NCBI GenBank assembly: GCA_016214655.1
Contig: JACROC010000005.1
Location: 3,078-67,077, forward strand
DNA length: 64,000 nt
Source of the DNA: Candidatus Harrisonbacteria bacterium
GTDB taxonomy: Bacteria; Patescibacteriota; Minisyncoccia; UBA6257; 02-FULL-45-10c
Direction: 5' to 3'
Shown: positions 1,014-62,967 of the stretch, piece after piece
Layout: every line of letters starts with the position of its first letter
How positions within the stretch are numbered: the stretch's first letter is position 1
Made by a program: the position numbers and the translations under genes
The notes under the pieces: generated by a model
Seen by the model: the letters and a program-made list of their open reading frames with translations, nothing else
The model's database searches: none
Told to the model about the DNA's origin: nothing

Positions 1014-2294
1014 ATGCCCAAAAAGCATTACTTAAAAGAGGTCATTCTCTATACCGGATTGTTTATTGCGTTAGCCGCCGTGGGCGCCAGCTCTTTTTAT
1101 TTCGGGTATCAGCGGGGGGCGGCCAGTCCTCGGAAGGTTACGGTGGAAAATCTTACCAATCTTGAAGGAAAAGAAAATTTAAAAACCGATTTCGGCGTTT
1201 TTTGGGAGGCTTGGGACGTTCTAAAAAAAGAGCATCTCAAAGGGGAGGAAGCAAAGGATAAAGATTTAGTTTACGGGGCTATTAAAGGTTTGGTCAGTTC
1301 GCTTGGCGATCCCCACACGGTATTTTTTCCGCCGGAGGATTCCAAGAAATTTGAAGAAGATGTTTCCGGCAATTTTGGCGGAATCGGAGCGGAAATCGGC
1401 ATCAGGAGCAATCAGCTGGTGGTGATAGCTCCGTTAAAAGGGAATCCGGCGGAAAAAGTCGGATTAAAAGCCGGTGATAAAATTGTCGCGATTGACGGGA
1501 AGGGTACGGAGGGGGTAGATGTGAATGAGGCGGTTAAAAAGATCAGGGGAGAAATCGGCACTGAAGTTACGCTGACGATTTTTAGGGATGGCTGGGAACG
1601 AACCAAGGATTTTAAGATTATGCGGGCAAATATTGAAATACCAACTTTGGAATGGGAGCTGATCCAAAAAGACAGCAAAGAATTGGCACATATTAAGCTT
1701 TTCAGTTTTAATCAAAACGCCCCGGCGGTATTTTATAAGGCGGCGCTGGCGGTTTTACTTGGCAAAGCGGACGGAATAATTTTGGATTTAAGAAATGATC
1801 CGGGAGGATATCTGGAGGTGGCGGTTAATCTTGCCGGCTGGTTTCTGAATCGCGGAGAAGTTATCGTGACGGAAAAATTCCGCCAAGGAGATCCGATTGT
1901 TTTTTATGCTAACGGCAACGGCGCTTTGAGAAATGTGCCCACCGTAATTTTAGTAAATAAAGGATCGGCATCGGCTTCGGAAATTTTGGCCGGGGCTTTG
2001 CGCTCTCAGCTCGGAATTAAATTAGTCGGAGAAAAAACTTTTGGCAAGGGGACTGTCCAGGAATTGAGGCCTTTAAGCGACAATTCTAAAATAAAGCTGA
2101 CTATTGCCAACTGGGTTTTGCCGGACGGCCATATTATAGATGATCAGGGGCTGAAGCCGGATGTTGAAGTGGAAATAAAAGAGGAGGATTTGGAAAAAGC
2201 GGAAAAGAATAAAATTAAAATAGATCCCCAATTAGATAAAGCCGCGGAGGTTCTTTTAGAAGAGATCAAGCAAAAATTATTGGTGCAAAGCTAA
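1014..2294 (+). CDS. ctpA: C-terminal processing peptidase, S41 family (PDZ domain)
   Basis: N-terminal TM segment and PDZ region (GIGAEIG...[13 protein letters not shown]). S41 catalytic motifs are DLRNDPGG and [13 protein letters not shown]. Confidence 0.85.
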
Positions 2295-3731: not shown

Positions 3732-5333
3732 ATGGCAGAAAAAAAACAACCAACAGCTTTAATTATTTTTGACGGTTTTGGCATTACCGTTGAGAAGAGG
3801 GGTAATGCCATTGCCGCGGCCAAAACTCCCAATTTAAATCAAATCAGCCAATATTATCCCGGTACTACTTTGCGGGCTTCCGGCGTTGAGGTCGGTTTAG
3901 CCTGGGGAGAAATGGGCAGTTCGGAAGTCGGCCACGCCAATATGGGCGCGGGATTGGTAGTCTATCAGAACCTGGAAAAAATTAATTTAGCCATCCGTGA
4001 TGGCTCTTTTGCTCAGCTCCCAGCTTGGAAGAGGCTAGCTGATCACGCCGTTAAAAATAACTCCAATATTCATTTAATGGGGCTTCTATCTAACGGCGGC
4101 GTCCATTCCCATATTGAGCACATTCTGGCTATTTTACGCAATATTAAAGATTTGAATTATAAAGGCAAGGTTTTTATCCACGCTTTTACTGACGGCCAGG
4201 ATGTGGCTCCGCAATCTGCTTTGATATTTTTGAGTATCCTAAAGGAAGAAATGAGTAAAATTAAAATCGGCGAGATAGCGACTGTGATGGGGCGATACTA
4301 TGCAATGGATAAAAATGAGGAATGGGAACGTACTCAAAAAGCTTATGACTGCTTAACTGAAGGATCCGGAGTTAAGGCCGCGGATCCGGAACAAGCGATC
4401 CTAGACTCTTATTCTAAAGAAGTAAAAGACGAGCATATAAAGCCGGTCGTTATTGTGGATAAAAAAAATCAGCCGGTTGGCCTGGTTAAAGAAGGCGATG
4501 TTCTGATGTTTTTTAATTTCCGCGCCGATCGGGCGAGGCAGATCACCCGCTCTTTTATATTTGCCGATAAATTTGACAAGTTTCCGGTTAAAAAATTTAA
4601 AAATTTGCTGTTTGTTCCCCTGACGCAATATGGACTGGATTATCCGGTAGAGCCGGCTTTTCCTCTCCAGAATATTAAAAATCCGCTTGCCAAAGTTGTT
4701 TCTGACGCCGGAAAAACTCAATTTCATATCGCGGAAGCGGAAAAATACGCCCACGTAACTTATTTTTTCAATGGCGGTCTGGAAACACCGTTTCCAGGAG
4801 AAGATCGGGGCATTATTCCTTCCAAGAAAGTAAAAGGATTTGATGAAAAGCCGGAGATGAGCGCTCATGAGATTACCGGGCGGGTTATCTCGGAATTAGG
4901 AAAGAATAATTATGATTTGTATGTTATCAATTTTGCTAATGGCGATATTGTCGGCCACACCGGTAATTTTAAGGCCGCGGTTAAAGCGATAGAGGTGCTG
5001 GATGAGTGTATAGGTAAGATTAAAGATGAGGTTTTAAAATTAGGCGGCACGTTGGTGATAACCGGCGATCATGGCAATGTGGAAGAGATGATTAACTTAG
5101 AAACCGGCGAGACTGATAAAGAACATTCCACTAATCCGGTGCCGTTTTGGGTTATCAGCGCGGACATTAAAAAAACCTCGGCTATCGAGGGCGTAACTCA
5201 AGTTGAACCCGGCGGAATCCTGGCTGATATTTCACCGACTATTTTGGAATTGATGGGAATATCAAAGCCGGAAGAGATGACAGGGAGTAGTTTAATAAAC
5301 GTGGTTTCTTATTGTCCGCTGCCTAAGGAGTGA
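3732..5333 (+). CDS. gpmI: 2,3-bisphosphoglycerate-independent phosphoglycerate mutase
   Basis: Colinear iPGM signature (LIIFDGFG, EVGHANMGAG, TGDHGN). An extended -10 (TGGTAAAAT) lies about 25 nt upstream. Confidence 0.9.
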   Translation: MAEKKQPTALIIFDGFGITVEKRGNAIAAAKTPNLNQISQYYPGTTLRASGVEVGLAWGEMGSSEVGHANMGAGLVVYQNLEKINLAIRDGSFAQLPAWKRLADHAVKNNSNIHLMGLLSNGGVHSHIEHILAILRNIKDLNYKGKVFIHAFTDGQDVAPQSALIFLSILKEEMSKIKIGEIATVMGRYYAMDKNEEWERTQKAYDCLTEGSGVKAADPEQAILDSYSKEVKDEHIKPVVIVDKKNQPVGLVKEGDVLMFFNFRADRARQITRSFIFADKFDKFPVKKFKNLLFVPLTQYGLDYPVEPAFPLQNIKNPLAKVVSDAGKTQFHIAEAEKYAHVTYFFNGGLETPFPGEDRGIIPSKKVKGFDEKPEMSAHEITGRVISELGKNNYDLYVINFANGDIVGHTGNFKAAVKAIEVLDECIGKIKDEVLKLGGTLVITGDHGNVEEMINLETGETDKEHSTNPVPFWVISADIKKTSAIEGVTQVEPGGILADISPTILELMGISKPEEMTGSSLINVVSYCPLPKE

Positions 5334-8300
5334 AGCGCATTGGTGCTGGAGGAGGAACTGGCGGCGGAGCAGCGGGGGATTGCGGCGCAGGTGGTTGCGA
5401 CATAGGCGGCTGCGGCGTGGCCGCGGTGCCAGGTTTCATTTTAATATCCAGCGTTGGCAGGCCCGCTTTTTCTAATATCAGTGATTCAGACCGGAATGAC
5501 GCGAAGCCGGCTTTAGAGCAGGTGATATAATATTTACCGGGCGTAAGCAGGAAGTGGAAACGTCCTTGCTCATCGGTAACTTTAGTGGCTAAAAGCCAAT
5601 TTTTTTCTTCGTCAAAAATTCTGACGACCGCCAATGACAGGGGAGAGTTAGTGGCTTCATCAATAATCGTGCCGAATGGTTTGAGTAACCGGAAAGTGAA
5701 GTAGATTTTTAACGAATCTAAAATTATATAAACTATGAGCGTGAAGTAGTTCAGAAAGTTTGGGACAATAGCAAGAGAAACAATGCTGACCAGAGTTCCA
5801 AAAGCCAGCAGATACGGATTTAAAAGTTCGATAAATCTCTTAAGGGCGTTCCATATATTGACTCTCTTAAGATATTCCAGACTGATTTCTCCGATGCTCG
5901 GAGTGATGGAAAGTTCTAAGTTAAGAATTTGATCCGTTGTAGATATGGTAATAGCTTCTGTTTCAAAGGTTTCGTATCCGTTCTTAGAAACTTTAATGTA
6001 ATATTTTCCCGAACCTACTAATGCGCCAAAGCGTCCTTCTAAATCGGTAGTTTGGCTATCCTTTAATTTTTTAAACTCTGATTCATAGATTTGGATAGTT
6101 GCCGCCTGGAGAGGTTTGCCGCTTAATTTATCAATAATTCTTCCCCATGGCTTGCGCCGTTTGAACCGGATTAAGCCGAGTAAATAAAATCTGCTCAAAC
6201 TTAATGTTTGAAGCACTTGGGAAAGATTAATTGCGAAAGTGGCGCTGCCGGCAGTAGCGGTAACAGTTACTGCTCCGGCAGTTGCGGTAGAAACGGTTAT
6301 GGAAACTGGTGTTGCAATATCGTCCACTGTTTTTCGCGTGCCCGGATCTTTCCTTAATATTGCGACGGTTTTCTGAACCTCGCTATTTAATACTTTTAAT
6401 GATTCGGTGAATTTAAAACCCTTGGAGATTATTATATTAACCGTGGAATTTGGCGGAAGATTTTCAGCGTTCCATTTGACATTATATTTTTTCCCGATAG
6501 TTAAAGTTTCTCCGCCATTCGGATATAGGAGTTTAATTGACGGACCGCCGGCAGTTTGGGCGTAAGCAACCAACTGGTTAGCGGTAAAAATTTTTCCGAG
6601 TGATGCCGGTATAAATAAACTGCTAATTTCTCCTTCTGTATTTTGCAAAGCGGCCAAAGAAGCAACTAAGTTGAAAGGCGCATCACTGCTATCCTGAATT
6701 GACGAATCGGCAGAGGAGACCACGGTTATTCTGTAGTCGCTGCCCGGGGTAAGCGCTAAGGTGCCAACTTCGCTGGCCAGAACTCCCTTTGAAGTGCTCC
6801 AGGTATGCCGTCCGGTATTTGGAGCGTCGCTTACGATTATTGCAATCCCAGCAGATCCGGTAGTGATGCCTTTAAATGTTTCCAGGAAGCCAGTTGTTAC
6901 TGCATTTCCGATTTCTGCCGCTTCTGCACCAAGGCGGCGGACAGTTTCCAGGGCTTCAGCTGTGGAAACCCGAGCTTCGGCGGCTTCAATAATAGCGTTT
7001 AAAGAATTCGTTGTGATGGCGGTGATATCCAGTCCGGCGGTTTGCGCCTCAGCTAATTCTATAATGATATTGGTGAAGGCGATGGAGCTGATGTCTGAAA
7101 TATTTACCCCTTGGTCTGCGGCCGCATCTAAAGCGGTAATGATAGTGCTTAATGCTTTTGAATCAAGGGTGCTTACATTAACGCCGGAGGTTTGCGCTGA
7201 ACTAAGACCCTGAATAAATAACGACATAACCTCACTATCAATTGTTGTTAGATTTACGCCGGTACTGGCGGCGATATCTATCGCTTGTATCGTGGCAGCT
7301 AGCACTGCGCTATCAACGGCTGAAATGCCGGCGCGTGTTTCAGCAGCCGCATCCATAGCCAGAATGACCGATGAGATGGTTTGGGTATTAAGTGTAGTTA
7401 CATCAACCCCACTCGTCGAGAGCGTATCTACTGCCTGAATAACCGATGATAAAGCTTCGGTATTAATTGTCGTGACATCTGTTCCTTCGGTCGCCGAGGT
7501 ATTAACTGCCTGAATTACTGAAATAAGAGTTTGGGTATTAATTGCGGAAATATCCACGCCGGCTGTTGAAGCCGCGTCTACTGCTTCCACGACCGCCGCT
7601 AATGATTGGGTATCTATTGAAGCAACATCGGTTCCAGTATTTGCGGCAGTGTTTAGAGTTTCAATTACTGTTACGAGGGTATCGCTATTAAGCGTAGTAA
7701 CATCTGATCCTATGTCGGCGTTGCTATCCACCGCTTGTACAACCGCAGCCAGGGTTGTGGCATCGATTGTTGATACATCCAGCCCGGCCGTTGCGCTAAG
7801 TTCTACCGCCTGAAGAACAGCGCTTAATGTATCGTTGCTAATAGTGCTAGTTTCCGTGCCTTCTGCGGCCGACTGCGCTACGGCTTCGGTAACGGCGGTG
7901 ATAGTTTCTGCGCTTGCCGTAACACCAGTTGTTTCTACTGCCGTGGAGACGCTAGTTTCGGCTGTTGCAGTTTGTTCGGTTGTTGGCGTAGGAGTCGGAG
8001 ATGGCGTCGGTGTCGGTTCTGGACTTGGTGCCGGAGCCGGGGCTGGAGCTGGTGTCGGTTCTGGACTTGGTGCCGGAGCCGGCGTTGGAGCCGGTGCCGG
8101 AGCTGGCGTTGGAGTGGGAGATGTTCCTGCACCCGCGCCCGCTCCACCACCGCCACCACCTCCACCGCCGCCTCCACCAGTAGTGCAAGTGGTTGATTCT
8201 GGAGTAATAGTGTAGGTCAAAGATCCGCCGCTGGATGGCATGGTGATAGTTAGGGTGTTTTTGGTGTCGCTGCAGCTGGTGGTTAGGTAATCTGTTCGTG

Positions 8301-8544
8301 AAGCAGTGAGAACTCTCCGGTTGGCAGAGCTGATGCTAAAGCGCTGGTTCGGCGCCATTATGATGGTAAAACTGTTTTCGTCAAAGGCGATTTCGTCTAA
8401 AAGATTAGAACCACTTTCCACATCTAAAAGAATTCCAGCGACGGAAAGCTGGACTTCTCCGGGAGTTAATTCAAAATCCGCAAGCGCCGTGCCGGATAAT
8501 AAAAGCGATAGCAATAATAATCCCACCCCTGCTTTTTTGACCAT
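5323..8544 (-). CDS. giant secreted/surface repeat protein (1073 aa)
   Basis: Signal peptide, poly-Gly run, long Pro-Thr/Pro-Ala linker, and about 14 tandem ~28-aa repeats (consensus about TxGxDVxTIxxxxLxxVIQAVD). It has two carboxypeptidase-regulatory-like beta-sandwich segments (VTDEQGRFHF..PGKYYI and LEGRFGALVGSGKYYIKV) flanking a hydrophobic TM block, and a Pro-rich C-terminal tail. Confidence 0.85.
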   Translation of the reverse strand: MVKKAGVGLLLLSLLLSGTALADFELTPGEVQLSVAGILLDVESGSNLLDEIAFDENSFTIIMAPNQRFSISSANRRVLTASRTDYLTTSCSDTKNTLTITMPSSGGSLTYTITPESTTCTTGGGGGGGGGGGGAGAGAGTSPTPTPAPAPAPTPAPAPSPEPTPAPAPAPAPSPEPTPTPSPTPTPTTEQTATAETSVSTAVETTGVTASAETITAVTEAVAQSAAEGTETSTISNDTLSAVLQAVELSATAGLDVSTIDATTLAAVVQAVDSNADIGSDVTTLNSDTLVTVIETLNTAANTGTDVASIDTQSLAAVVEAVDAASTAGVDISAINTQTLISVIQAVNTSATEGTDVTTINTEALSSVIQAVDTLSTSGVDVTTLNTQTISSVILAMDAAAETRAGISAVDSAVLAATIQAIDIAASTGVNLTTIDSEVMSLFIQGLSSAQTSGVNVSTLDSKALSTIITALDAAADQGVNISDISSIAFTNIIIELAEAQTAGLDITAITTNSLNAIIEAAEARVSTAEALETVRRLGAEAAEIGNAVTTGFLETFKGITTGSAGIAIIVSDAPNTGRHTWSTSKGVLASEVGTLALTPGSDYRITVVSSADSSIQDSSDAPFNLVASLAALQNTEGEISSLFIPASLGKIFTANQLVAYAQTAGGPSIKLLYPNGGETLTIGKKYNVKWNAENLPPNSTVNIIISKGFKFTESLKVLNSEVQKTVAILRKDPGTRKTVDDIATPVSITVSTATAGAVTVTATAGSATFAINLSQVLQTLSLSRFYLLGLIRFKRRKPWGRIIDKLSGKPLQAATIQIYESEFKKLKDSQTTDLEGRFGALVGSGKYYIKVSKNGYETFETEAITISTTDQILNLELSITPSIGEISLEYLKRVNIWNALKRFIELLNPYLLAFGTLVSIVSLAIVPNFLNYFTLIVYIILDSLKIYFTFRLLKPFGTIIDEATNSPLSLAVVRIFDEEKNWLLATKVTDEQGRFHFLLTPGKYYITCSKAGFASFRSESLILEKAGLPTLDIKMKPGTAATPQPPMSQPPAPQSPAAPPPVPPPAPMRFTP

Positions 8545-17816: not shown

Positions 17817-19304
17817 TTATATTGGCAGTCCGGCCAAGTTATCGGTTATTTTTCCGTCTTGGACGGCTATTTGGCCGTTGACAATCACGTTGACCATTTG
17901 ATTGTCTTTAAACATTGCCAGATCCGCAAACCACCCTTCTTTAACTGTTCCGCGTTTTTCCAGGCCGAAAATCTCGGCAGGAGAACTAGTTATTTTCTGA
18001 ATTGATTTTTCAATTCTGACGCCTTTTTCGGCGGCCATTTTCAGAAATTGAGTGAAGGTATTTAAAGATCGTTCCGGTTTCAGGAGGGCCGGGGAATCTT
18101 TCGGGCTGGCGCTGTTGGAGCCGATCAAAGCGCGGGGATGGAATAAGGCTTCTTTCAAAAGTTCTGAGTTAATATTTTGATGCAGAAATAGCGCCTTCAT
18201 TCTGGTAATCTCCATTATTGCCAGCAAGCCATCACAAATATTCAATCCCCTATTTTCTGAAAATTCTTTTAAGTTTTTTCCTACTATGGAATTATTGTCC
18301 CTGGCCTCCGCGATAATTAGTTTTTTCGGATTTATTTCCGAGTTGCCTAGTTCCTTCAGGATGCGAACGCGATGCCTTTGCTGGCTGATAATAGCCAGCA
18401 TATTTTCCAGTCCGCCATGCTGTGCCCAGGCCGGCAAAAGCGTGTAAATCGGAAGAACGCTGGCGTTAAACGGGTTCATTTCCAGGTATAGATTCGCCTT
18501 ATTTAGGTTAGCATCAATTAAGTCTTTTGCTTCGCGGAATTGGTTTTCCCAGCCGAGTATCGGCCGAAAATGGCTGATAATCACCGATGCCTTGCTTTCT
18601 TTTGCTATTTGAATAGTTTCTTTTACCGATTCGACTAAGCCTCCTCTTTCGTCTCGCAAATGAGTCGCATAAACGCCTTTATATTTTGTCAAGACCGCCA
18701 GTAAATTTTTAATCTCTATATACGGAACATTTTTGGAATGAGAATATCCTAAGCCGGCTGATAAGCCCCTCCCCCCTTCTTTCAAGGAATTGGAAAGCGT
18801 ATTTTTAAATATATCCATTTCCGAATCAGTCAGATCCCGGATTTCTTCCCCGATCAAATCTCGCCGGATAGTGGAGTGGCCGACTAGGGTGGTAAAGTTC
18901 ACGCCCAATCCCAAGCGGCGGAGAACAGATTTGAGTTCGGCGAGAGTCACCCAGCCAACATTGATCTGGTCTGGATCGGCCCATTTCCGGATTGATTTCA
19001 ATGATCCATAAAGCAGCGGAGCTAAAGATGATCCGCATTGGCCGCCGATAATAGTAGTTACGCCCTGAAGCAGAAAATCTTTTTGGGACGGATTGGTGAA
19101 TAAAGTTAAATAGTGGTCGGAGGTTGAGTGGCAATCAATAAATCCCGGCGTAAGCGTAAGGCCCAAGCCATCAATTATTTGTTCGGCTTTCTGGTTCGGA
19201 AAATTACCGATTGCGGAGATGCGATTGTCTTTTATCAAAATATCGCCTTTAAATGAAGGTTGCCCGGTTCCATCGATAATTTGAGTATTTTTGATAAGTA
19301 ACAT
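17817..19304 (-). CDS. amidohydrolase-family protein (D-aminoacylase-like)
   Basis: N-acyl-D-amino-acid deacylase-like architecture (IIDGTG...GFIDCHSTSDH). The usual HxH metal motif is replaced by C-H-S-T-S-D-H. Confidence 0.65.
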   Translation of the reverse strand: MLLIKNTQIIDGTGQPSFKGDILIKDNRISAIGNFPNQKAEQIIDGLGLTLTPGFIDCHSTSDHYLTLFTNPSQKDFLLQGVTTIIGGQCGSSLAPLLYGSLKSIRKWADPDQINVGWVTLAELKSVLRRLGLGVNFTTLVGHSTIRRDLIGEEIRDLTDSEMDIFKNTLSNSLKEGGRGLSAGLGYSHSKNVPYIEIKNLLAVLTKYKGVYATHLRDERGGLVESVKETIQIAKESKASVIISHFRPILGWENQFREAKDLIDANLNKANLYLEMNPFNASVLPIYTLLPAWAQHGGLENMLAIISQQRHRVRILKELGNSEINPKKLIIAEARDNNSIVGKNLKEFSENRGLNICDGLLAIMEITRMKALFLHQNINSELLKEALFHPRALIGSNSASPKDSPALLKPERSLNTFTQFLKMAAEKGVRIEKSIQKITSSPAEIFGLEKRGTVKEGWFADLAMFKDNQMVNVIVNGQIAVQDGKITDNLAGLPI

Positions 19305-19306
19305 AG

Positions 19307-19574
19307 GCGATGTCTAAACTAATATTCTTACTAAATTAAATAATTGATTTTGCATCAAGTTTGAGGCGCGAGGAAGAAATTGTGGGGTTACCCACGTTTC
19401 TGACAAGTAACGAAAAAATTGAACAAAATCAATTATCCCGTCGGGCAAGGCTATTTTATTCAACTCCTTCGTTACTCCTCCTCGCTGTGGTAAAACCACA
19501 AGCTCGTCGTCGCGCCTTGGATTTGGAATAAAATAGCTCTTGTTAATTAGTGATAATATTAGTTTAGACATCGC
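19307..19574. ncRNA. copy B of a 268-nt highly structured intergenic element (candidate novel structured RNA, strand undetermined)
   Basis: Perfect 20-bp terminal inverted repeat (gcgatgtctaaactaatatt / aatattagtttagacatcgc). Internal 13-bp helix (ataattgattttg / caaaatcaattat). Hairpins gtggg-gtta-cccac and tgtggt-aaaa-accaca. Colinear with and homologous to the element at 27036..27303, with compensatory changes in every helix. Confidence 0.5.
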
Positions 19575-21930
19575 TTATTAATGGCTGAGCTGTTTCTCCC
19601 CTAGCTAAGCCGTATTTGGTCCTGGAAAATTCTTTTAATTTATCCCGTACTTGCGAATTTCCTCTTGGTAATGGCAGGGGTTTAAGATTGAACGGTTTAG
19701 AAGTCTGGCCATTAATAAGTAATTTTGCATAGGCATTAAAGTTATCCACGTTGATTAAATCATTTTTAGTGAAAACCGGTTCAAATTGCTTGATTAATTT
19801 TTCCGCATCTTCAGCGCCAACGCGGAATACCAGCATGGAGCCGACATTGCCGAAAACCGCGTCGCGGATTTTTTCTGGTATTTGGGTAATAAATTGATGC
19901 GCGATGGTCAGATTCAGCCGATACTTACGGGCTTCGGATAGAATAACTTCAATTGAACTGGTGGTGAAGTTTTGAAATTCATCAATAAATAGATTGAAAT
20001 CTTTCCGTTCTTCTTGCGGCATATCAACGCGTGAAAGCGCGGACATCAAGAGTTTGCCAACAATAATCATACCCAGTAAATTAGCATTAAGATCGCCAAT
20101 CCGTCCCTTAGCCAGCTTGACTAGCAAGATTTTGCCGGTATCCATAATTTCTCTGAATCTTAATGATGATTTTGGTTGGCTAATAATTGGACGGACGTAA
20201 TCATTGGCAATAAAGTTGTTGAATTTTGAAGTTATATAAGGAGCCATTTCTGAAAGCGCCGCTTCGCCCTTGATCACAGCCACTTCTCTTTCCCAAAAAT
20301 CTTTAACTACTGGATTTTGGCAGCGGGCTAATTTTTTTTCGCGATAATCGGTATCGGTTAATACGCGCGGTATATCCGCAAGAGTCGCCGGTTCATAAGG
20401 CGCATCCTCCATTAAAAGCAAGAGTGAATTTCTCATGTATTGCTGGAATATCGGTCCCATCGCTTCGCCACTATCAGGAAAAAGTTTTAGTAAGATTCCA
20501 AGTATCTCGTCAACGATAAAAGTTTTTTGTTCTGGATGCGTGAAATCATATTCCAACATATTTAAACTTAGGGGTCGTTCTAAATCGCCCGGGTCAAAAA
20601 CAACGACATCGTTTAACCTATTTTCCGGAATAAGGCCCATGACGTTATCAACGTCGTCTCCGTGCGGATCGATTATAGCTACTCCTTTTCCGTTTTGAAT
20701 ATCATTGAGAGCGATGTTCATCATGGCATTAGTTTTACCGGTGCCGGTTTGTCCAATAATGTAGATATGGCGGCGGCGGTCGTCATTGCTGATAAAAACT
20801 GGCTTCCGTTCCCCGCGGAACAAACTTTCTCCCAAGAGCGTTCCTTCTTTTGGCAGATTGGGCGGAGGTGCGGATTCCCGTGTTTTAAGCCACTTGATCT
20901 TCGGAGTTTCGGTGGTTGCGATTGGGAAATGGAATAGGCTGACTAATTCATCCGCCCCGATAATTACTCTTTCTTTTTCTTCATACTGCCTGAAAATATA
21001 TCTGAAAATAAACTCTTTCTGGTTTCTTGGCTTCAGCGCGCGAAAACTGTTTTTAAGCGGTGCCTGGAATTGTTCAAACGAGCCGGCTAAACTATTCAGA
21101 ATCTCCTCAGCCCGGTATTGGCTGGCTGCTGAAGCGACTAAACGGACGTTAACCGCAAAAAGCGGTTTGGCAATTTTTTTCTCCAGCGCTTTTATGGTTT
21201 CTTCTTCTACTATGGGCTTGGCAGCTTCTTTTTCTTCTGGTTTAGTTCCCTTCATTGCTTTTTGGATATCTTTGAAGGAGATCATGTATTTGCTCATGCT
21301 TAAAACCTCATTTAATCGTTCTCCTTTTTTCAGCATATACATGAAACTGGTGATGGCCTTCTTAGCTTTTGATGGGGCGGGTTTTACTACGATTTGCATC
21401 GCCGCTCCTTCTCCAATGGTCTGCATTTTGGAGAGATTGCTGATAATTGGGGCAAAGGTGTCCAGTGCCGCTTCCTCGTAAGTCCGGATTGGCAGAGCAA
21501 AATGTTCTTTTTGCTGGAGATAAACGCCGAGGTTTACGCCTTGATGGTTGAATATATTATAATCTTCTACTTCTTCTACAAAGGCATCGTGCCATAAACC
21601 TTGAATTTGTTTTTTGATAAATTCAATAGAATCTTTTGGTATAGAAACATAAAAATGGATTTCTTCCCCGATATTATGCACTGCAATTTCCAGAGTAAAA
21701 GGTATTTTTAGGCTGGCTAACGCGCTTAAAAGTTGGGCAGTAAGATTGATTTCTTTCAGCGGGTCTTCTTTGGTTTCTGCGGCTATTTTTTTAGGCAATT
21801 GTACCAAGAGAAGCCGCAGCTTCAAAGCTTTAATGAAGTATTTATGGTGTATTTTTTTAGCAATCCAGAAAGCTATAAAACCGGCCGCCGCCACGGCTAA
21901 AATTAGATAACTGATGGACAAAATACTCAT
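19564..21930 (-). CDS. membrane-anchored VirD4/TraG/TraD-like P-loop ATPase (type IV coupling-protein family)
   Basis: N-terminal TM. Walker A is IIGQTGTGKTNAMMN and Walker B is NLFIDEFQNF. Overall layout resembles TraG/TrwB-type conjugation or T4SS ATPases. Confidence 0.65.
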   Translation of the reverse strand: MSILSISYLILAVAAAGFIAFWIAKKIHHKYFIKALKLRLLLVQLPKKIAAETKEDPLKEINLTAQLLSALASLKIPFTLEIAVHNIGEEIHFYVSIPKDSIEFIKKQIQGLWHDAFVEEVEDYNIFNHQGVNLGVYLQQKEHFALPIRTYEEAALDTFAPIISNLSKMQTIGEGAAMQIVVKPAPSKAKKAITSFMYMLKKGERLNEVLSMSKYMISFKDIQKAMKGTKPEEKEAAKPIVEEETIKALEKKIAKPLFAVNVRLVASAASQYRAEEILNSLAGSFEQFQAPLKNSFRALKPRNQKEFIFRYIFRQYEEKERVIIGADELVSLFHFPIATTETPKIKWLKTRESAPPPNLPKEGTLLGESLFRGERKPVFISNDDRRRHIYIIGQTGTGKTNAMMNIALNDIQNGKGVAIIDPHGDDVDNVMGLIPENRLNDVVVFDPGDLERPLSLNMLEYDFTHPEQKTFIVDEILGILLKLFPDSGEAMGPIFQQYMRNSLLLLMEDAPYEPATLADIPRVLTDTDYREKKLARCQNPVVKDFWEREVAVIKGEAALSEMAPYITSKFNNFIANDYVRPIISQPKSSLRFREIMDTGKILLVKLAKGRIGDLNANLLGMIIVGKLLMSALSRVDMPQEERKDFNLFIDEFQNFTTSSIEVILSEARKYRLNLTIAHQFITQIPEKIRDAVFGNVGSMLVFRVGAEDAEKLIKQFEPVFTKNDLINVDNFNAYAKLLINGQTSKPFNLKPLPLPRGNSQVRDKLKEFSRTKYGLARGETAQPLISDV

Positions 21931-26922: not shown

Positions 26923-27035
26923 ACTTCTAAAGTATAGCAGAAATTACTAAGGGCGTGGCCGTGATTGTTGTCAAAAGTTTAAACAAATTGCCTTGGTTTA
27001 TTCTCTGCATGGATCATCATTATATCAGTATATTA

Positions 27036-33923: not shown

Positions 33924-35750
33924 CAAAAGATTTTGACTTTTTCGAATTTTATCGTATTTTTGTTGGTATCAGCGGCAGCGGTATTTTTATTTAATGTTGC
34001 GGCTGGAGACTCGGCTATTTTTGATGAAACCGCCCATATTGTTGCCGGCTATACATATGTTAAGCATCTGGATTATCGTTTTAATCCTGAGCATCCGCCG
34101 TTAGTGAAAATGCTGGCCGGTTTGCCGCTTTTATTTGAAAATTTTAACTTCCCTACTGACAAAGGCTATTGGGAAGGATTAAATGAGCAGTGGTGGGCTG
34201 GCAATGAATTTTTATATAAATCCGGCAATGACGCGGATAAAATAATTCTTTTAGCCAGAATTGGCCCGATCCTTCTTACGCTCCTTACGATAATTTTTAT
34301 CTATATTTTTGCCAAAGGAATAATCGGGCGCCATTGGGCGTTGTTCCCGGCTTTTTTATTTGCTTTGTCCCCTATTGTTTTAGCTCACGGGCATTATGTT
34401 ACTACTGATATTGGCGCGGCCCTTGGCACACTTTTAACAATTTATTATTTTTTAAAGTTTTTATTTGATCAATCACAAAAGAATTTAATTTCAGCCGGTT
34501 TGGCATTTGGGTTTATGCAGGCGGTAAAGTTTTCCGGCGTGCTTTTGATCCCTTATCTTTTCATATTAGCAGTAATTTTTTGGTTTATTAAGAGAGATCC
34601 ATTTTTGTATAAATATCTTTGGAATACGGTTTTAGTCATGGCAATCGGATATGTTTTTGTGGTTTATCCGCTTTATCTTTTAACTACTTGGAATTATCCA
34701 ATCGAAAAACAAGTTGCCGATACAGAAGCGGTCATCGGCGACTTCCGTATTCAACCTCTGGCAAATTTAAATATCTGGATGGCCGGTAATAAAATTTTGC
34801 GTCCTTTCGGAGAGTATTTGTTGGGGGTGCTGATGGTGCTTCAGCGATCGGCTGGCGGTAATAATGCTTATTTCCTCGGGCAGCTTTCCTCTCATGGCTG
34901 GTGGTATTATTTTCCGCTTGTTTATTTTATGAAAGAATCTTTGCCAACTTTATTTGTTATTTTATCAGCGGGTATTCTAGGGGCGATTCGTTTATTGGCA
35001 GCTTTCGGATATGGTCCGCGAAAGGCCTGGGAGAAATTTAAAGAGTACTTAAGTGTGCAGTTTGCGGAATTTTCCATGATTATCTTTATTATTCTTTACT
35101 GGCTTTCCAGCATTACCAGCCCTCTAAATATCGGGGTCCGCCATATTCTTCCGACTATTCCATTTATTTATATCTTATCAGCCGGAGCATTGCGAAAATG
35201 GTTTTCCTTCCAGCCTACATTGATCAGTATAAATTTAAAAGAGAGATTAAAAAATCTTTCACACACAATTTTTAATTTTTGGGTAAAAGCAGTTATTTTA
35301 AGTGCGTTGGTGATTTGGCTGGCAGTGGAAACTACTCTGGCGGCGCCATATTTTTTGTCTTATTTTAATAATTTTTCCGGATGGCGCGAAAACGGATTTT
35401 ATTACGTGACTGACTCTAATTTTGACTGGGGGCAGGATCTAAAAAGACTTAAAACTTGGACACGAATAAACTTAGAACAAAATGAAAAAATTGCGGTGGA
35501 TTATTTTGGCGGCGGCGACCCGGCATATTATCTTGGCGATCAATTTGTGCCATGGTGGTCGGCTAAAGGCAGCAGTCCTAAAGATGAGGGAATAAATTGG
35601 CTGGCGATTTCTGCAAACGTGCTTCAGGGTGCCTTAGCAACGCCAATTCTTGATTTCCAAAAAAATCCGGCTGACGAATACCGCTGGCTGGAAAACCCAT
35701 ATGGCTTTATTGATCGGGCCGGAACTTCTATATTTATTTACAGACTTTAA
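33921..35750 (+). CDS. GT-C glycosyltransferase of the PMT/ArnT family (second copy)
   Basis: Multi-TM protein with the DETAH / EHPPL loop motif typical of PMT/ArnT enzymes. ORF track starts at 33894 (TTG); the ATG at about 33921 is preferred. Confidence 0.75.
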   Translation: MQKILTFSNFIVFLLVSAAAVFLFNVAAGDSAIFDETAHIVAGYTYVKHLDYRFNPEHPPLVKMLAGLPLLFENFNFPTDKGYWEGLNEQWWAGNEFLYKSGNDADKIILLARIGPILLTLLTIIFIYIFAKGIIGRHWALFPAFLFALSPIVLAHGHYVTTDIGAALGTLLTIYYFLKFLFDQSQKNLISAGLAFGFMQAVKFSGVLLIPYLFILAVIFWFIKRDPFLYKYLWNTVLVMAIGYVFVVYPLYLLTTWNYPIEKQVADTEAVIGDFRIQPLANLNIWMAGNKILRPFGEYLLGVLMVLQRSAGGNNAYFLGQLSSHGWWYYFPLVYFMKESLPTLFVILSAGILGAIRLLAAFGYGPRKAWEKFKEYLSVQFAEFSMIIFIILYWLSSITSPLNIGVRHILPTIPFIYILSAGALRKWFSFQPTLISINLKERLKNLSHTIFNFWVKAVILSALVIWLAVETTLAAPYFLSYFNNFSGWRENGFYYVTDSNFDWGQDLKRLKTWTRINLEQNEKIAVDYFGGGDPAYYLGDQFVPWWSAKGSSPKDEGINWLAISANVLQGALATPILDFQKNPADEYRWLENPYGFIDRAGTSIFIYRL

Positions 35751-37662: not shown

Positions 37663-37742
37663 ACAGCGTTTAGCGGTTAGCGTTTAGCGGTTAGGGCAAA
37701 AAAATATTTTCCTAAACGCTGTACGCTGTACGCTGTACGCTA
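37663..37742. repeat. heptamer tandem arrays (GCGKTTA)x4 and (CGCTGTA)x3 forming an imperfect hairpin between alr and ftsQ
   Basis: acagcgtttagcggttagcgtttagcggttaggg ... cctaaacgctgtacgctgtacgctgtacgcta. In the mRNA sense (CUAAACG/CUAACCG)n ends 9 nt before the ftsQ AUG. The distal array overlaps the alr stop. Confidence 0.8.
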
Positions 37743-49582: not shown

Positions 49583-49636
49583 TGTTAGGTGTTGGGTGTT
49601 AGGTGTTAGATAATTTTTCTAAAACCTAAAACCTAA
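49583..49636. repeat. heptamer arrays (GGTGTTA)x3-4 and (CCTAAAA)x2-3 between rpsH and rplF
   Basis: tgttaggtgttgggtgttaggtgttag ... ctaaaacctaaaacctaa. In the mRNA sense (CUAACAC)n ends 1 nt before the rplF AUG. Confidence 0.85.
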
Positions 49637-51053: not shown

Positions 51054-51422
51054 TTATACTACTTCTTCCGCCATTGTAAATACGGTTTCAAATTTCTTTT
51101 CTTTAATTTCCCGCGGCAGTGGCCCGAAAATGCGGGTTCCTTTTGGTTCCTTTTTCTCATCTATGATAACTACGGCGTTATCATCAAAACGCAAATAAGA
51201 CCCGTCTTTCCGGCGCAGCGCTTTTCTTTGTCTGACTACCACGCATTTTACGATGTCTTTCTTCTTGATAGCTTTTCTTGGTTCTGCAATTTGGACCGAA
51301 GCAATAACAATATCCCCGATTTCCGCATATCTTTTTCGGCTGCCGCCCAAAACTCTAAAACAACGCACGATTTTGGCGCCGCTATTATCCGCTACTTTTA
51401 ATATGGAACGTTCTTGTATCAT
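51054..51422 (-). CDS. rplN: 50S ribosomal protein L14
   Basis: [17 protein letters not shown]. Confidence 0.9.
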
Positions 51423-51513
51423 AGGTTAGGGGTTAGGGGTTAGGGGTTAGGGGTTAGGGGTTAGAAAAATTTATTTATAAAATTCTATACCCTCAACCCT
51501 ATAACCTAAACCC
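51423..51513. repeat. (GGGGTTA)x6 tandem array plus C-rich partially complementary array between rpsQ and rplN
   Basis: ggttaggggttaggggttaggggttaggggttaggggttag ... ccctcaaccctataacctaaaccc. In the mRNA sense (CUAACCC)6 ends 1 nt before the rplN AUG. The G-strand has five or more GGGG tracts and is capable of forming a G-quadruplex. Confidence 0.9.
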
Positions 51514-62412: not shown

Positions 62413-62825
62413 GTTTTTTTAGGTCTTTTTGCTCCATACTTAGACCTTTGCTGTTTTCTGGCCTCTACCCCGCTGGTATCCAAAATTCCTCTTACGATAT
62501 GATAGCGGACTCCCGGAAGGTCTTTAACGCGGCCGCCGCGGATCATAACTACTGAGTGCTCCTGTAAATTATGGCCTTCTCCGGGTATATAAGCGGTAAC
62601 TTCCATACCATTGGTTAAACGGACGCGGGCTACTTTTCTTAAGGCTGAATTCGGCTTCTTTGGTGTAGTGGTAAAAACTTTAAGACAGACCCCTCTTTTA
62701 AAAGGCGAAGCGGATTTTACCGGACGGTTTTGAAGATAATTAAAATATCGCCCCAGCGCCGGAGATTTAGTTTTAGAAACTTTTGTTTTTCGGCTCCCTT
62801 TCATGAGCTGTCTGATTGTTGGCAT
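62409..62825 (-). CDS. rpsL: 30S ribosomal protein S12
   Basis: MPTIRQL...[11 protein letters not shown]. Confidence 0.95.
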
Positions 62826-62967
62826 ACCCGGTGCTACAACTTTGACTGGCGCTTAAAAAATTAAGCGTTAAATCAATCTTTGCAGTACGTATTAATATAA
62901 AATTACTAATTTTTCTTAATATATCCTCCCGGAGCTTATTTGGTCAAAGTTGTAGCTACCGGGCATG
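62823..62967 (-). repeat. copy C2 of the inverted-repeat-bracketed ~145-bp element; its proximal arm embeds the rpsL start codon
   Basis: catacccggtgctacaactttgac (CAT is the rpsL ATG) ... gtcaaagttgtagctaccgggcatg. Internal hairpin cgcttaa-aaaa-ttaagcg. Shares blocks ATAAGCT and GCAAAG..TTGATT with copy C1. In the gene orientation the distal arm region reads TTGACC-18-TATATT. Confidence 0.7.

Follow-up and report, generated by a model that had tools for sequence, protein, structure and literature searches.

The window, by which is meant the whole 64-kb stretch of DNA that was analysed, contains two copies of a long structured repeat, one of which (copy B) lies at the junction between the genes of a TraG-like ATPase and an amidohydrolase. 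The genes and features of this junction, together with the other copy (copy A), are the following.

17817–19304, minus strand: amidohydrolase (N-acyl-D-amino-acid deacylase-like), immediately downstream of copy B
19304–19305: left flanking TA, a putative target-site duplication, whose T corresponds, on the minus strand, to the A of the amidohydrolase ATG
19306–19575: copy B from TA to TA, 270 nt, family-forward orientation on the minus strand
19307–19339: left terminal arm, its first 20 nt being the perfect repeat, with 31 pairs to 19543–19574
19314–19571, minus strand: 85-aa ORF entirely within copy B, a non-gene whose open frame is not conserved in 40 relatives
19347–19374: inner part of the outer stem, pairing with 19507–19534
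19375–19401: side hairpin, with a GTGGG-GTTA-CCCAC core at 19382–19395
19402–19480: central stem-loop, with the apex CCC-GTC-GGG at 19437–19445
19484–19503: second side hairpin, GTGGT-AAA-ACCAC
19543–19574: right terminal arm, its last 20 nt (19555–19574) being the perfect repeat, which holds the TraG-like stop codon
19564–21930, minus strand: TraG-like gene (DUF8128 / TrwB-type ATPase), 788 aa, ending inside copy B
19576–19577: right flanking TA, a putative target-site duplication read from the sequence
27036–27304, plus strand: copy A, of a different subfamily, with termini unrelated to those of copy B

Copy B is an imperfect palindrome of about 268 nt (window positions 19307–19574). The perfect 20-bp terminal inverted repeat described in the first-pass annotation was confirmed by reading the sequence directly, GCGATGTCTAAACTAATATT at 19307–19326 being the exact reverse complement of 19555–19574. 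A repeat search of the window delimited two arms of 90 nt (19303–19392 and 19489–19578), and the best boundaries, once the flanking TA dinucleotides at 19304–19305 and 19576–19577 are considered, are 19306–19575. The element folds with about –104 kcal/mol on either strand (z = –11 against 200 dinucleotide shuffles), and none of the 200 shuffles was as stable. The inner part of the outer stem (19347–19374) carries the conserved GAGG...CCTTG and CGAGGA/TCGTCG motifs adjoining the junction, and the central stem-loop holds the most conserved blocks of the family, AGTAACGAA (19406–19414) and TTCGTTACT (19468–19476). The earlier observation that copy B occupies the entire gap between the two genes was also borne out: the distance from the element to the amidohydrolase start codon (19304..19302, minus strand) is 2 nt, and the TraG-like stop codon (19564–19566) falls within the right terminal repeat, giving an overlap of 11 nt.

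Copies A and B are about 60% identical in either orientation and have a four-arm architecture in common. Every helix is preserved between them, with changes on both sides at 30 of the 88 predicted pairs, and both match a covariance model, so that the homology of the two 268-nt repeats proposed in the first-pass annotation stands; the same annotation had doubted that they are recent att duplicates, with which their low identity and unrelated termini agree. In the orientation of the family, copy A runs forward on the plus strand and copy B on the minus strand, the two being 7.5 kb apart and inverted relative to each other. Copy A is preceded by TA on its left (27034–27035), and its right flank reads AG. 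The covariance model, R1, was built from these two copies, and the search of the window with it, a check suggested at the outset, recovered only copies A and B and no third copy, with filters on or off.

The window also carries other repeats. A second, unrelated palindromic family of about 150 nt is present at 33776–33927 and 62819–62956; its terminal inverted repeat, about 28 nt long (CATRCCCGGTGCTACAACTTTGAC ... GTCAAAGTTGTAGCACCGGGTATG), is well conserved and its interior is not, as is usual for MITEs (miniature inverted-repeat transposable elements). Telomere-like tandem runs of the heptamer GGGGTTA occupy intergenic positions at 51415–51471 and, as the complement, at 33468–33515, with degenerate runs at 49583–49636 and 37675–37694. 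A direct repeat of 28–42 nt (TGTTGTCAAAAAGTTAGACA...) occurs at 26966–26993, 27898–27925 and 31540–31567, shortly upstream of gene starts (TrmB, 27960 and 31741), and may represent a shared promoter or operator motif. Finally, a 75-nt periodic repeat at 7199–7844, corresponding to 25-residue repeats, lies in the ORF at 5323–8544 (minus), which encodes a 1073-aa protein with CarboxypepD_reg domains.

The blocks common to copies A and B are ACGAAR, CCCNNNGGG and TTCGTYACTYSTC, and a pattern composed of these three was found at 46 loci in species-representative genomes, nearly all of which were covered by R1 at full length. Altogether, the pattern scan and the covariance model yielded about 45 full-length relatives. 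Among 2.9 million viral contigs there was one pattern match, and it was rejected by R1 as chance, indicating that the pattern rarely matches by chance. The hosts comprise Saccharibacteria and other Patescibacteria, Acidobacteriota, Gemmatimonadota, Elusimicrobiota and a MAG of the gammaproteobacterial Porticoccaceae, with mis-binning being possible for a few MAG labels, such as those of a 2.5-kb 'Gammaproteobacteria' contig (L006) and a 'planctomycete' contig (L018). The acidobacterial hosts include the isolates Terriglobus albidus DSM 26559 and Terriglobus sp. 2YAB30_2, in addition to Terracidiphilus, Holophagae and Thermoanaerobaculia. The G+C content of the elements tracks that of the host flanks (r = 0.89, in hosts of 33–69% G+C), which indicates that they are long-term residents rather than contamination. 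Their length is narrowly distributed, with a median of 270 nt and an interquartile range of 265–273 nt. Copies of about 290–305 nt were observed at L035 (6639–6943), L026 (4141–4441) and L033 (550–839), where an additional hairpin of 20–30 nt lies inside one side arm, showing that the side arms tolerate insertions and the core does not.

All copies of the family are intergenic, and many lie within 0–20 nt of gene ends, sometimes on both sides. The neighbours sampled are housekeeping genes (metG, tatD, yajQ, secA, a histidine kinase, a nucleotidyltransferase), and an all-against-all BLAST of the ORFs of the 46 loci revealed no recurrent neighbour, since the only ORFs that clustered were those overlapping the element. 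Copies were found in all classes of gene orientation, that is, between co-directional genes and between 5 convergent and 6 divergent gene pairs. Besides the two copies in the 64-kb window, several MAGs and isolates carry copies on 2–3 contigs per genome, and near-identical copies on separate contigs of the same genome (L014/L037 and L038/L046) are consistent with recent copying. Two MAGs contain paired copies 3–5 kb apart on one contig, as in the window (L027, 1–139 and 3452–3728; L020, 236–499 and 5279–5510). None of the 46 loci had extra copies of its terminal repeat within the locus, and blastn retrieved no match to the family in plasmid and phage collections. When the 19-nt terminus of copy B was sought in JGI metagenomes, neither a sibling copy nor an autonomous element was found, the one match being a chance occurrence inside a gene. 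No autonomous partner or transposase was thus detected in the window, the 46 loci, the plasmid and phage collections or this metagenome scan; a Pfam scan of 20 large ORFs of the window identified housekeeping functions and no transposase. Literature searches on MITEs of Patescibacteria or Acidobacteria turned up neither an account of MITEs in Patescibacteria nor one of the present family, which spans several phyla and is apparently undescribed.

The window comes from a Candidatus Harrisonbacteria MAG, its amidohydrolase being 100% identical to an NCBI protein under that name. The genes surrounding copy B are arranged in the same manner in three relatives, whose amidohydrolases are about 65% identical to that of the window. 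In these, the order YchF / GT-C / small hypothetical / TraG-like (DUF8128) / amidohydrolase / FtsW / MurG / GltX / M23 peptidase is kept, the spacers between the TraG-like and amidohydrolase genes measure 9, –4 and 24 nt with no element in them, and R1 had no match anywhere in the three loci; the element-free state of this site is known only from relatives at that distance. The TraG-like protein of the window ends in ...YGLARGETAQPLISDV*, while those of the relatives end in ...YGMQRG*, ...YGLKRNV* and ...YGLQR*. Its C-terminus is about 10 codons longer, and the last codons and the stop codon lie inside copy B. In several Patescibacteria, moreover, the DUF8128-bearing 'TraG/VirD4-like' ATPase (19564–21930 in the window; loci L047, L050 and L052) is a conserved neighbour of amidohydrolase / FtsW / MurG. 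Its gene belongs to the core of a cell-envelope cluster and is neither a gene of conjugation nor part of a conjugative island.

The site of insertion could be established at nucleotide level in one filled/empty pair, the only one so resolved. The spacer between tatD and yajQ contains a copy in Terriglobus albidus (L012), in an Acidobacteriaceae MAG (L002) and in a JGI contig (L059), and its empty counterpart (L057, with a TatD 81% identical) has a spacer of 15 nt that aligns base for base with the filled sites. The empty site reads ...gtaaag TAA ACCTCGGAGAAGAAC ATG and the filled sites read ...gtaagc TA|GGGTGTGTCATC...GATGACACACCC|TA G ACCACGGAGAAAAAC ATG, the ends of the element being TA|GGGTGTG...CACACCC|TA. 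This alignment places the element exactly between two TA dinucleotides, within a former CTAG. Moreover, the tatD stop codon TAG is rebuilt in the filled sites from the left TA and the first G of the element. According to a previous report, elements of the IS630 family and Tc1-mariner insert at TA with duplication of TA, and IS630 prefers CTAG (PMC2170065, citing Tenzen et al. 1990, 1991); insertion into CTAG with TA duplication is the hallmark of transposition of the IS630/Tc1-mariner type. The single pair resolved would also be compatible with an IS5-type duplication of 4 bp (CTAG).

Across the family, a count made by hand from the listed ends found TA abutting the terminal repeat at 56 of 82 ends, and an automatic count found TA within an 8-nt window across the boundary at 52 of 76. 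A narrower automatic test gave a weak enrichment (32/82 versus 56/246), its window having missed TA located inside the palindromic extension. Most of the ends without TA are variants of it by one base (CA, TG, AA, TT). In loci whose flanks are not palindromic (L008, L009 and L023), the central TA alone is repeated, a pattern more in line with a duplication of 2 bp than of 4 bp. The size of the elements, which is under about 800 bp, their non-coding state, their terminal inverted repeats and the target duplication seen between filled and empty sites are those by which MITEs are recognised.

The conservation of the family is concentrated in its interior. Among the 267 columns of the alignment, 60 are conserved at 80% or more, 55 of them in the core (model positions 51–215) and 5 in the terminal arms. 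The core of about 165 nt is conserved across phyla, with invariant stem sequences (ACGAAG/CTTCGT, CCC/GGG and AGG/CCT), and the terminal arms differ completely between subfamilies, even between copies A and B. Despite this divergence in sequence, the terminal 25-bp helix is 94.7% paired family-wide, every one of its pairs having been altered on both sides. The side hairpins reach 93% pairing; compensatory changes in them are numerous, including some that separate close relatives. Each of the two is self-complementary and covaries independently, and they are often unlike one another within one copy; what is kept is therefore a four-way shape and not a simple rod. Pairing reached 86.8% overall, compared with 65% in shuffled and about 40% in slid controls, placing covariation far above background. 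The core and the overall length are under constraint, and the family is old and resident in several phyla. Copies in Patescibacteria show a pseudoknot-like alternative pairing between the CGACGAG and CGAGGAG junction motifs, which is not kept in the copies of Acidobacteria. A likeness of some Saccharibacteria termini (GGTTCGAATCC) to the T-arm of tRNA was dropped, since the flanking bases cannot form a T-stem.

At the consensus pairs (n = 87), about 83% of cells are Watson-Crick. The mismatched cells contain G-U and A-C in similar numbers, 216 versus 190 on the forward strand and 219 versus 162 on the reverse strand, and individual paired positions lean towards one or the other in both directions. 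RNA helices tolerate G-U pairs and do not tolerate A-C, so that this near equality on both strands argues against selection acting on one transcribed strand. Likewise, no consistent strand emerged when fold energies and G-U/A-C counts were used to choose the transcribed one. The family nevertheless has a conserved polarity, with its orientation agreeing in 377 of 419 strong pairwise comparisons. Relative to co-directional flanking genes, 15 copies have the same and 7 the opposite orientation, a difference that is not significant in a binomial test. The polarity is independent of the neighbouring genes.

Three other readings of copy B were weighed against this evidence. That the 85-aa ORF (19314–19571, minus) is a real small-protein gene is extremely improbable. 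It is open through the whole element, and copy A has an overlapping ORF in the same alignment register, but most of the 40 oriented copies have every one of the six frames interrupted by 2–9 stop codons, and the peptides predicted from copies A and B resemble each other only where the DNA is conserved. The ORF is therefore an artefact, as had been suspected. A structured non-coding RNA, or a cis-regulatory leader or 3′ structure for the flanking minus-strand genes, could account for the very stable fold, for the massive covariation and for the conserved polarity, and the mild lean of copies towards the orientation of co-directional genes would agree with it. However, the mixture of G-U and A-C just described, the absence of the element from the orthologous junction of relatives, the unrelated neighbours of different copies and the existence of copies between convergent and divergent genes all speak against this reading, which is improbable. 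In agreement, a search of the window and 14 loci against Rfam 15 gave no match at gathering score over the element, only chance matches with E≥0.45. Two matches to the Acido-Lenti-1 RNA (RF01687), just over the gathering score, were seen in the Terriglobus albidus locus L012 at 1111–1155 (–) and 1404–1448 (+) and are unrelated to the element. The leader, 3′ structure or antisense role offered in the first-pass annotation thus found no support, and neither did its suggestion that the copies enclose an acquired block of 8 kb. Two inverted copies 7.5 kb apart may recall att-like or composite-transposon boundaries. Nonetheless, three relatives devoid of any copy have the same genes in unbroken order across site B and on into amidohydrolase / FtsW / MurG / GltX, which disposes of such a block, and copies A and B have neither the identity nor the related termini of paired boundaries, leaving this possibility with hardly any credence.

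Copy B is, with high probability, a MITE insertion, a non-autonomous, non-coding and fully palindromic element of about 270 bp bounded by terminal inverted repeats and a duplicated TA. It would have been moved by cut and paste through a TA-targeting and TA-duplicating transposase acting in trans, probably of the IS630/Tc1-mariner type or, less likely, of a TA-duplicating subgroup of IS5. The element would have inserted at a TA within an operon-like junction with a very short spacer, where the left TA preserved the A of the amidohydrolase ATG and the TraG-like frame became extended by about 10 codons, coming to a stop in the terminal repeat. The right flank of copy A, which lacks TA, is at odds with the MITE reading, and the searches described above yielded neither an autonomous partner nor a sibling copy that would speak for recent mobility of the subfamily of copy B. 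In addition, the independent covariation of the side hairpins, the bias of conservation towards the core (55/60 columns) and the length of about 270 nt maintained across 33–69% G+C lie outside what plain double-stranded cut-and-paste transposition accounts for.

The fold, we infer, is under selection on both strands, and two reasons for this may be considered. The element may act as a DNA cruciform or hairpin, or as a single strand, during transposition, which would be symmetric for both strands. Alternatively, and more speculatively, read-through RNA might collapse into a compact hairpin in either orientation and so keep the upstream stop codon near the downstream start codon; such a requirement would also demand Watson-Crick instead of G-U pairs. 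In copy B, this would put the upstream stop codon (nt 9–11 of the element, read on the minus strand) and the downstream AUG located 2 nt past the element together at the base of a single helix.

Another explanation for these features would be a mobile element other than a classical MITE, one known to its enzyme by structure. In such an element, the four-way-junction core, as ssDNA or as a cruciform, would be the recognition module of a structure-specific recombinase or transposase, which would cleave the long stem at its base, the terminal sequence being free to drift as long as it remains paired. A core conserved across phyla with termini that differ even between copies A and B would be expected from this mechanism, as would a terminal helix that stays 95% Watson-Crick paired with each pair changed on both sides, self-complementary side hairpins that differ within a copy and maintain a cross instead of a rod, a tightly conserved length and pairing that is equally good on both strands. 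On the other hand, termini are shared in most genomes with at least two copies, as expected if a cognate transposase reads them, TA duplication at the exact repeat ends is a classical DDE signature, and no candidate recombinase gene recurs near the copies. Considering these observations, recognition by structure is unlikely. A related and wider proposal is that the family is a previously undescribed, ancient, multi-phylum mobile superfamily in which the interior (conserved four-way core, side hairpins and length of about 270 nt) outweighs the ends and the fold is needed on both strands; we advance it only tentatively, as possible and somewhat doubtful.

If that proposal is true, the fold would be either the substrate of the moving enzyme, as cruciform or ssDNA, or an RNA fold, formed in whichever direction a copy is read through, that allows copies to sit harmlessly in the tight operon junctions of streamlined genomes and sets the upstream stop codon beside the downstream start codon. 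The family explains unannotated 270-nt hairpins in Patescibacteria that would otherwise be tempting to read as RNA genes, small ORFs or island borders, and it represents an active or formerly active transposon family in very streamlined genomes, inserted at the stop and start codons of essential-gene clusters. The reversed conservation, together with a fold kept at 33–69% G+C, provides a test case for whether the foldback of MITEs is a by-product of descent or is selected, be it for transposition or for host tolerance. The covariance model and consensus could also serve for masking or annotation of such elements in metagenome-assembled genomes.

Bacterial MITEs already described, such as Correia, RUP and ERIC, share terminal inverted repeats, 5′-TA-3′ termini, long stem-loop folds and chance ORFs (PMC2229807). 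The Correia/NEMIS elements of Neisseria resemble the present family in being non-coding and intergenic, with terminal repeats of about 25 bp and TA both at their ends and as the duplication; they are often co-transcribed, form a long hairpin, and their transposase is unknown (PMC2229807). However, they measure 107–155 bp, are restricted to a single genus and fold as a simple stem-loop; in sequence they bear no similarity to the present family, which spans several phyla and has about 270 bp and a four-way junction with two covarying side hairpins. RUP of Streptococcus pneumoniae also has a TA target and terminal inverted repeats, and its mobilisation in trans by IS630-Spn1, of the IS630 family, has been proposed (PMC2229807), but it is 107 bp long and its terminal repeats match a known IS, whereas no matching IS was found for the present family. 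ERIC, or IRU (MITEEc1), is likewise an imperfect palindrome over its whole length, intergenic in operons and containing chance ORFs, and its sequence conservation is far above that usual for mobile repeats (PMC2229807). It differs in its length of 127 bp, its simple hairpin, its restriction to one bacterial family (enterobacteria) and its orientation-dependent effects on mRNA.

Similarities also extend to elements of other kinds. Integron attC sites are imperfect palindromes in which structure is conserved over sequence and polarity derives from conserved mismatches, and they act as folded single strands. In contrast to the present family, in which the interior is the conserved part, they measure 57–141 nt, have conserved R/L core sites and lie beside cassettes and an integrase (IntI), with no TA duplication; an attC identity for the family was ruled out by its size of about 270 nt, its housekeeping flanks and the lack of a recurring integrase. 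REP and REPIN sequences, associated with RAYT, are also dispersed intergenic palindromes, but REPs are 20–40 nt and REPINs about 100 nt long, with a GTAG or CGTC tag at one end and no TA duplication (PMC3733652). The termini of the present family, TA-GGG... and TA-GAG..., are unlike these tags, and REP/REPIN was accordingly ruled out on termini, size and the absence of a recurrent gene. Parallels are also offered by the Stowaway MITEs and the Tc1-mariner and IS630-family elements (e.g., ISY100), which use and duplicate a TA target, have cut-and-paste ends exactly at their terminal repeats and can fold back over their whole length (PMC2170065). In those elements, however, the terminal repeats are conserved and the interior is free, an arrangement that is reversed in the family to which copy B belongs.
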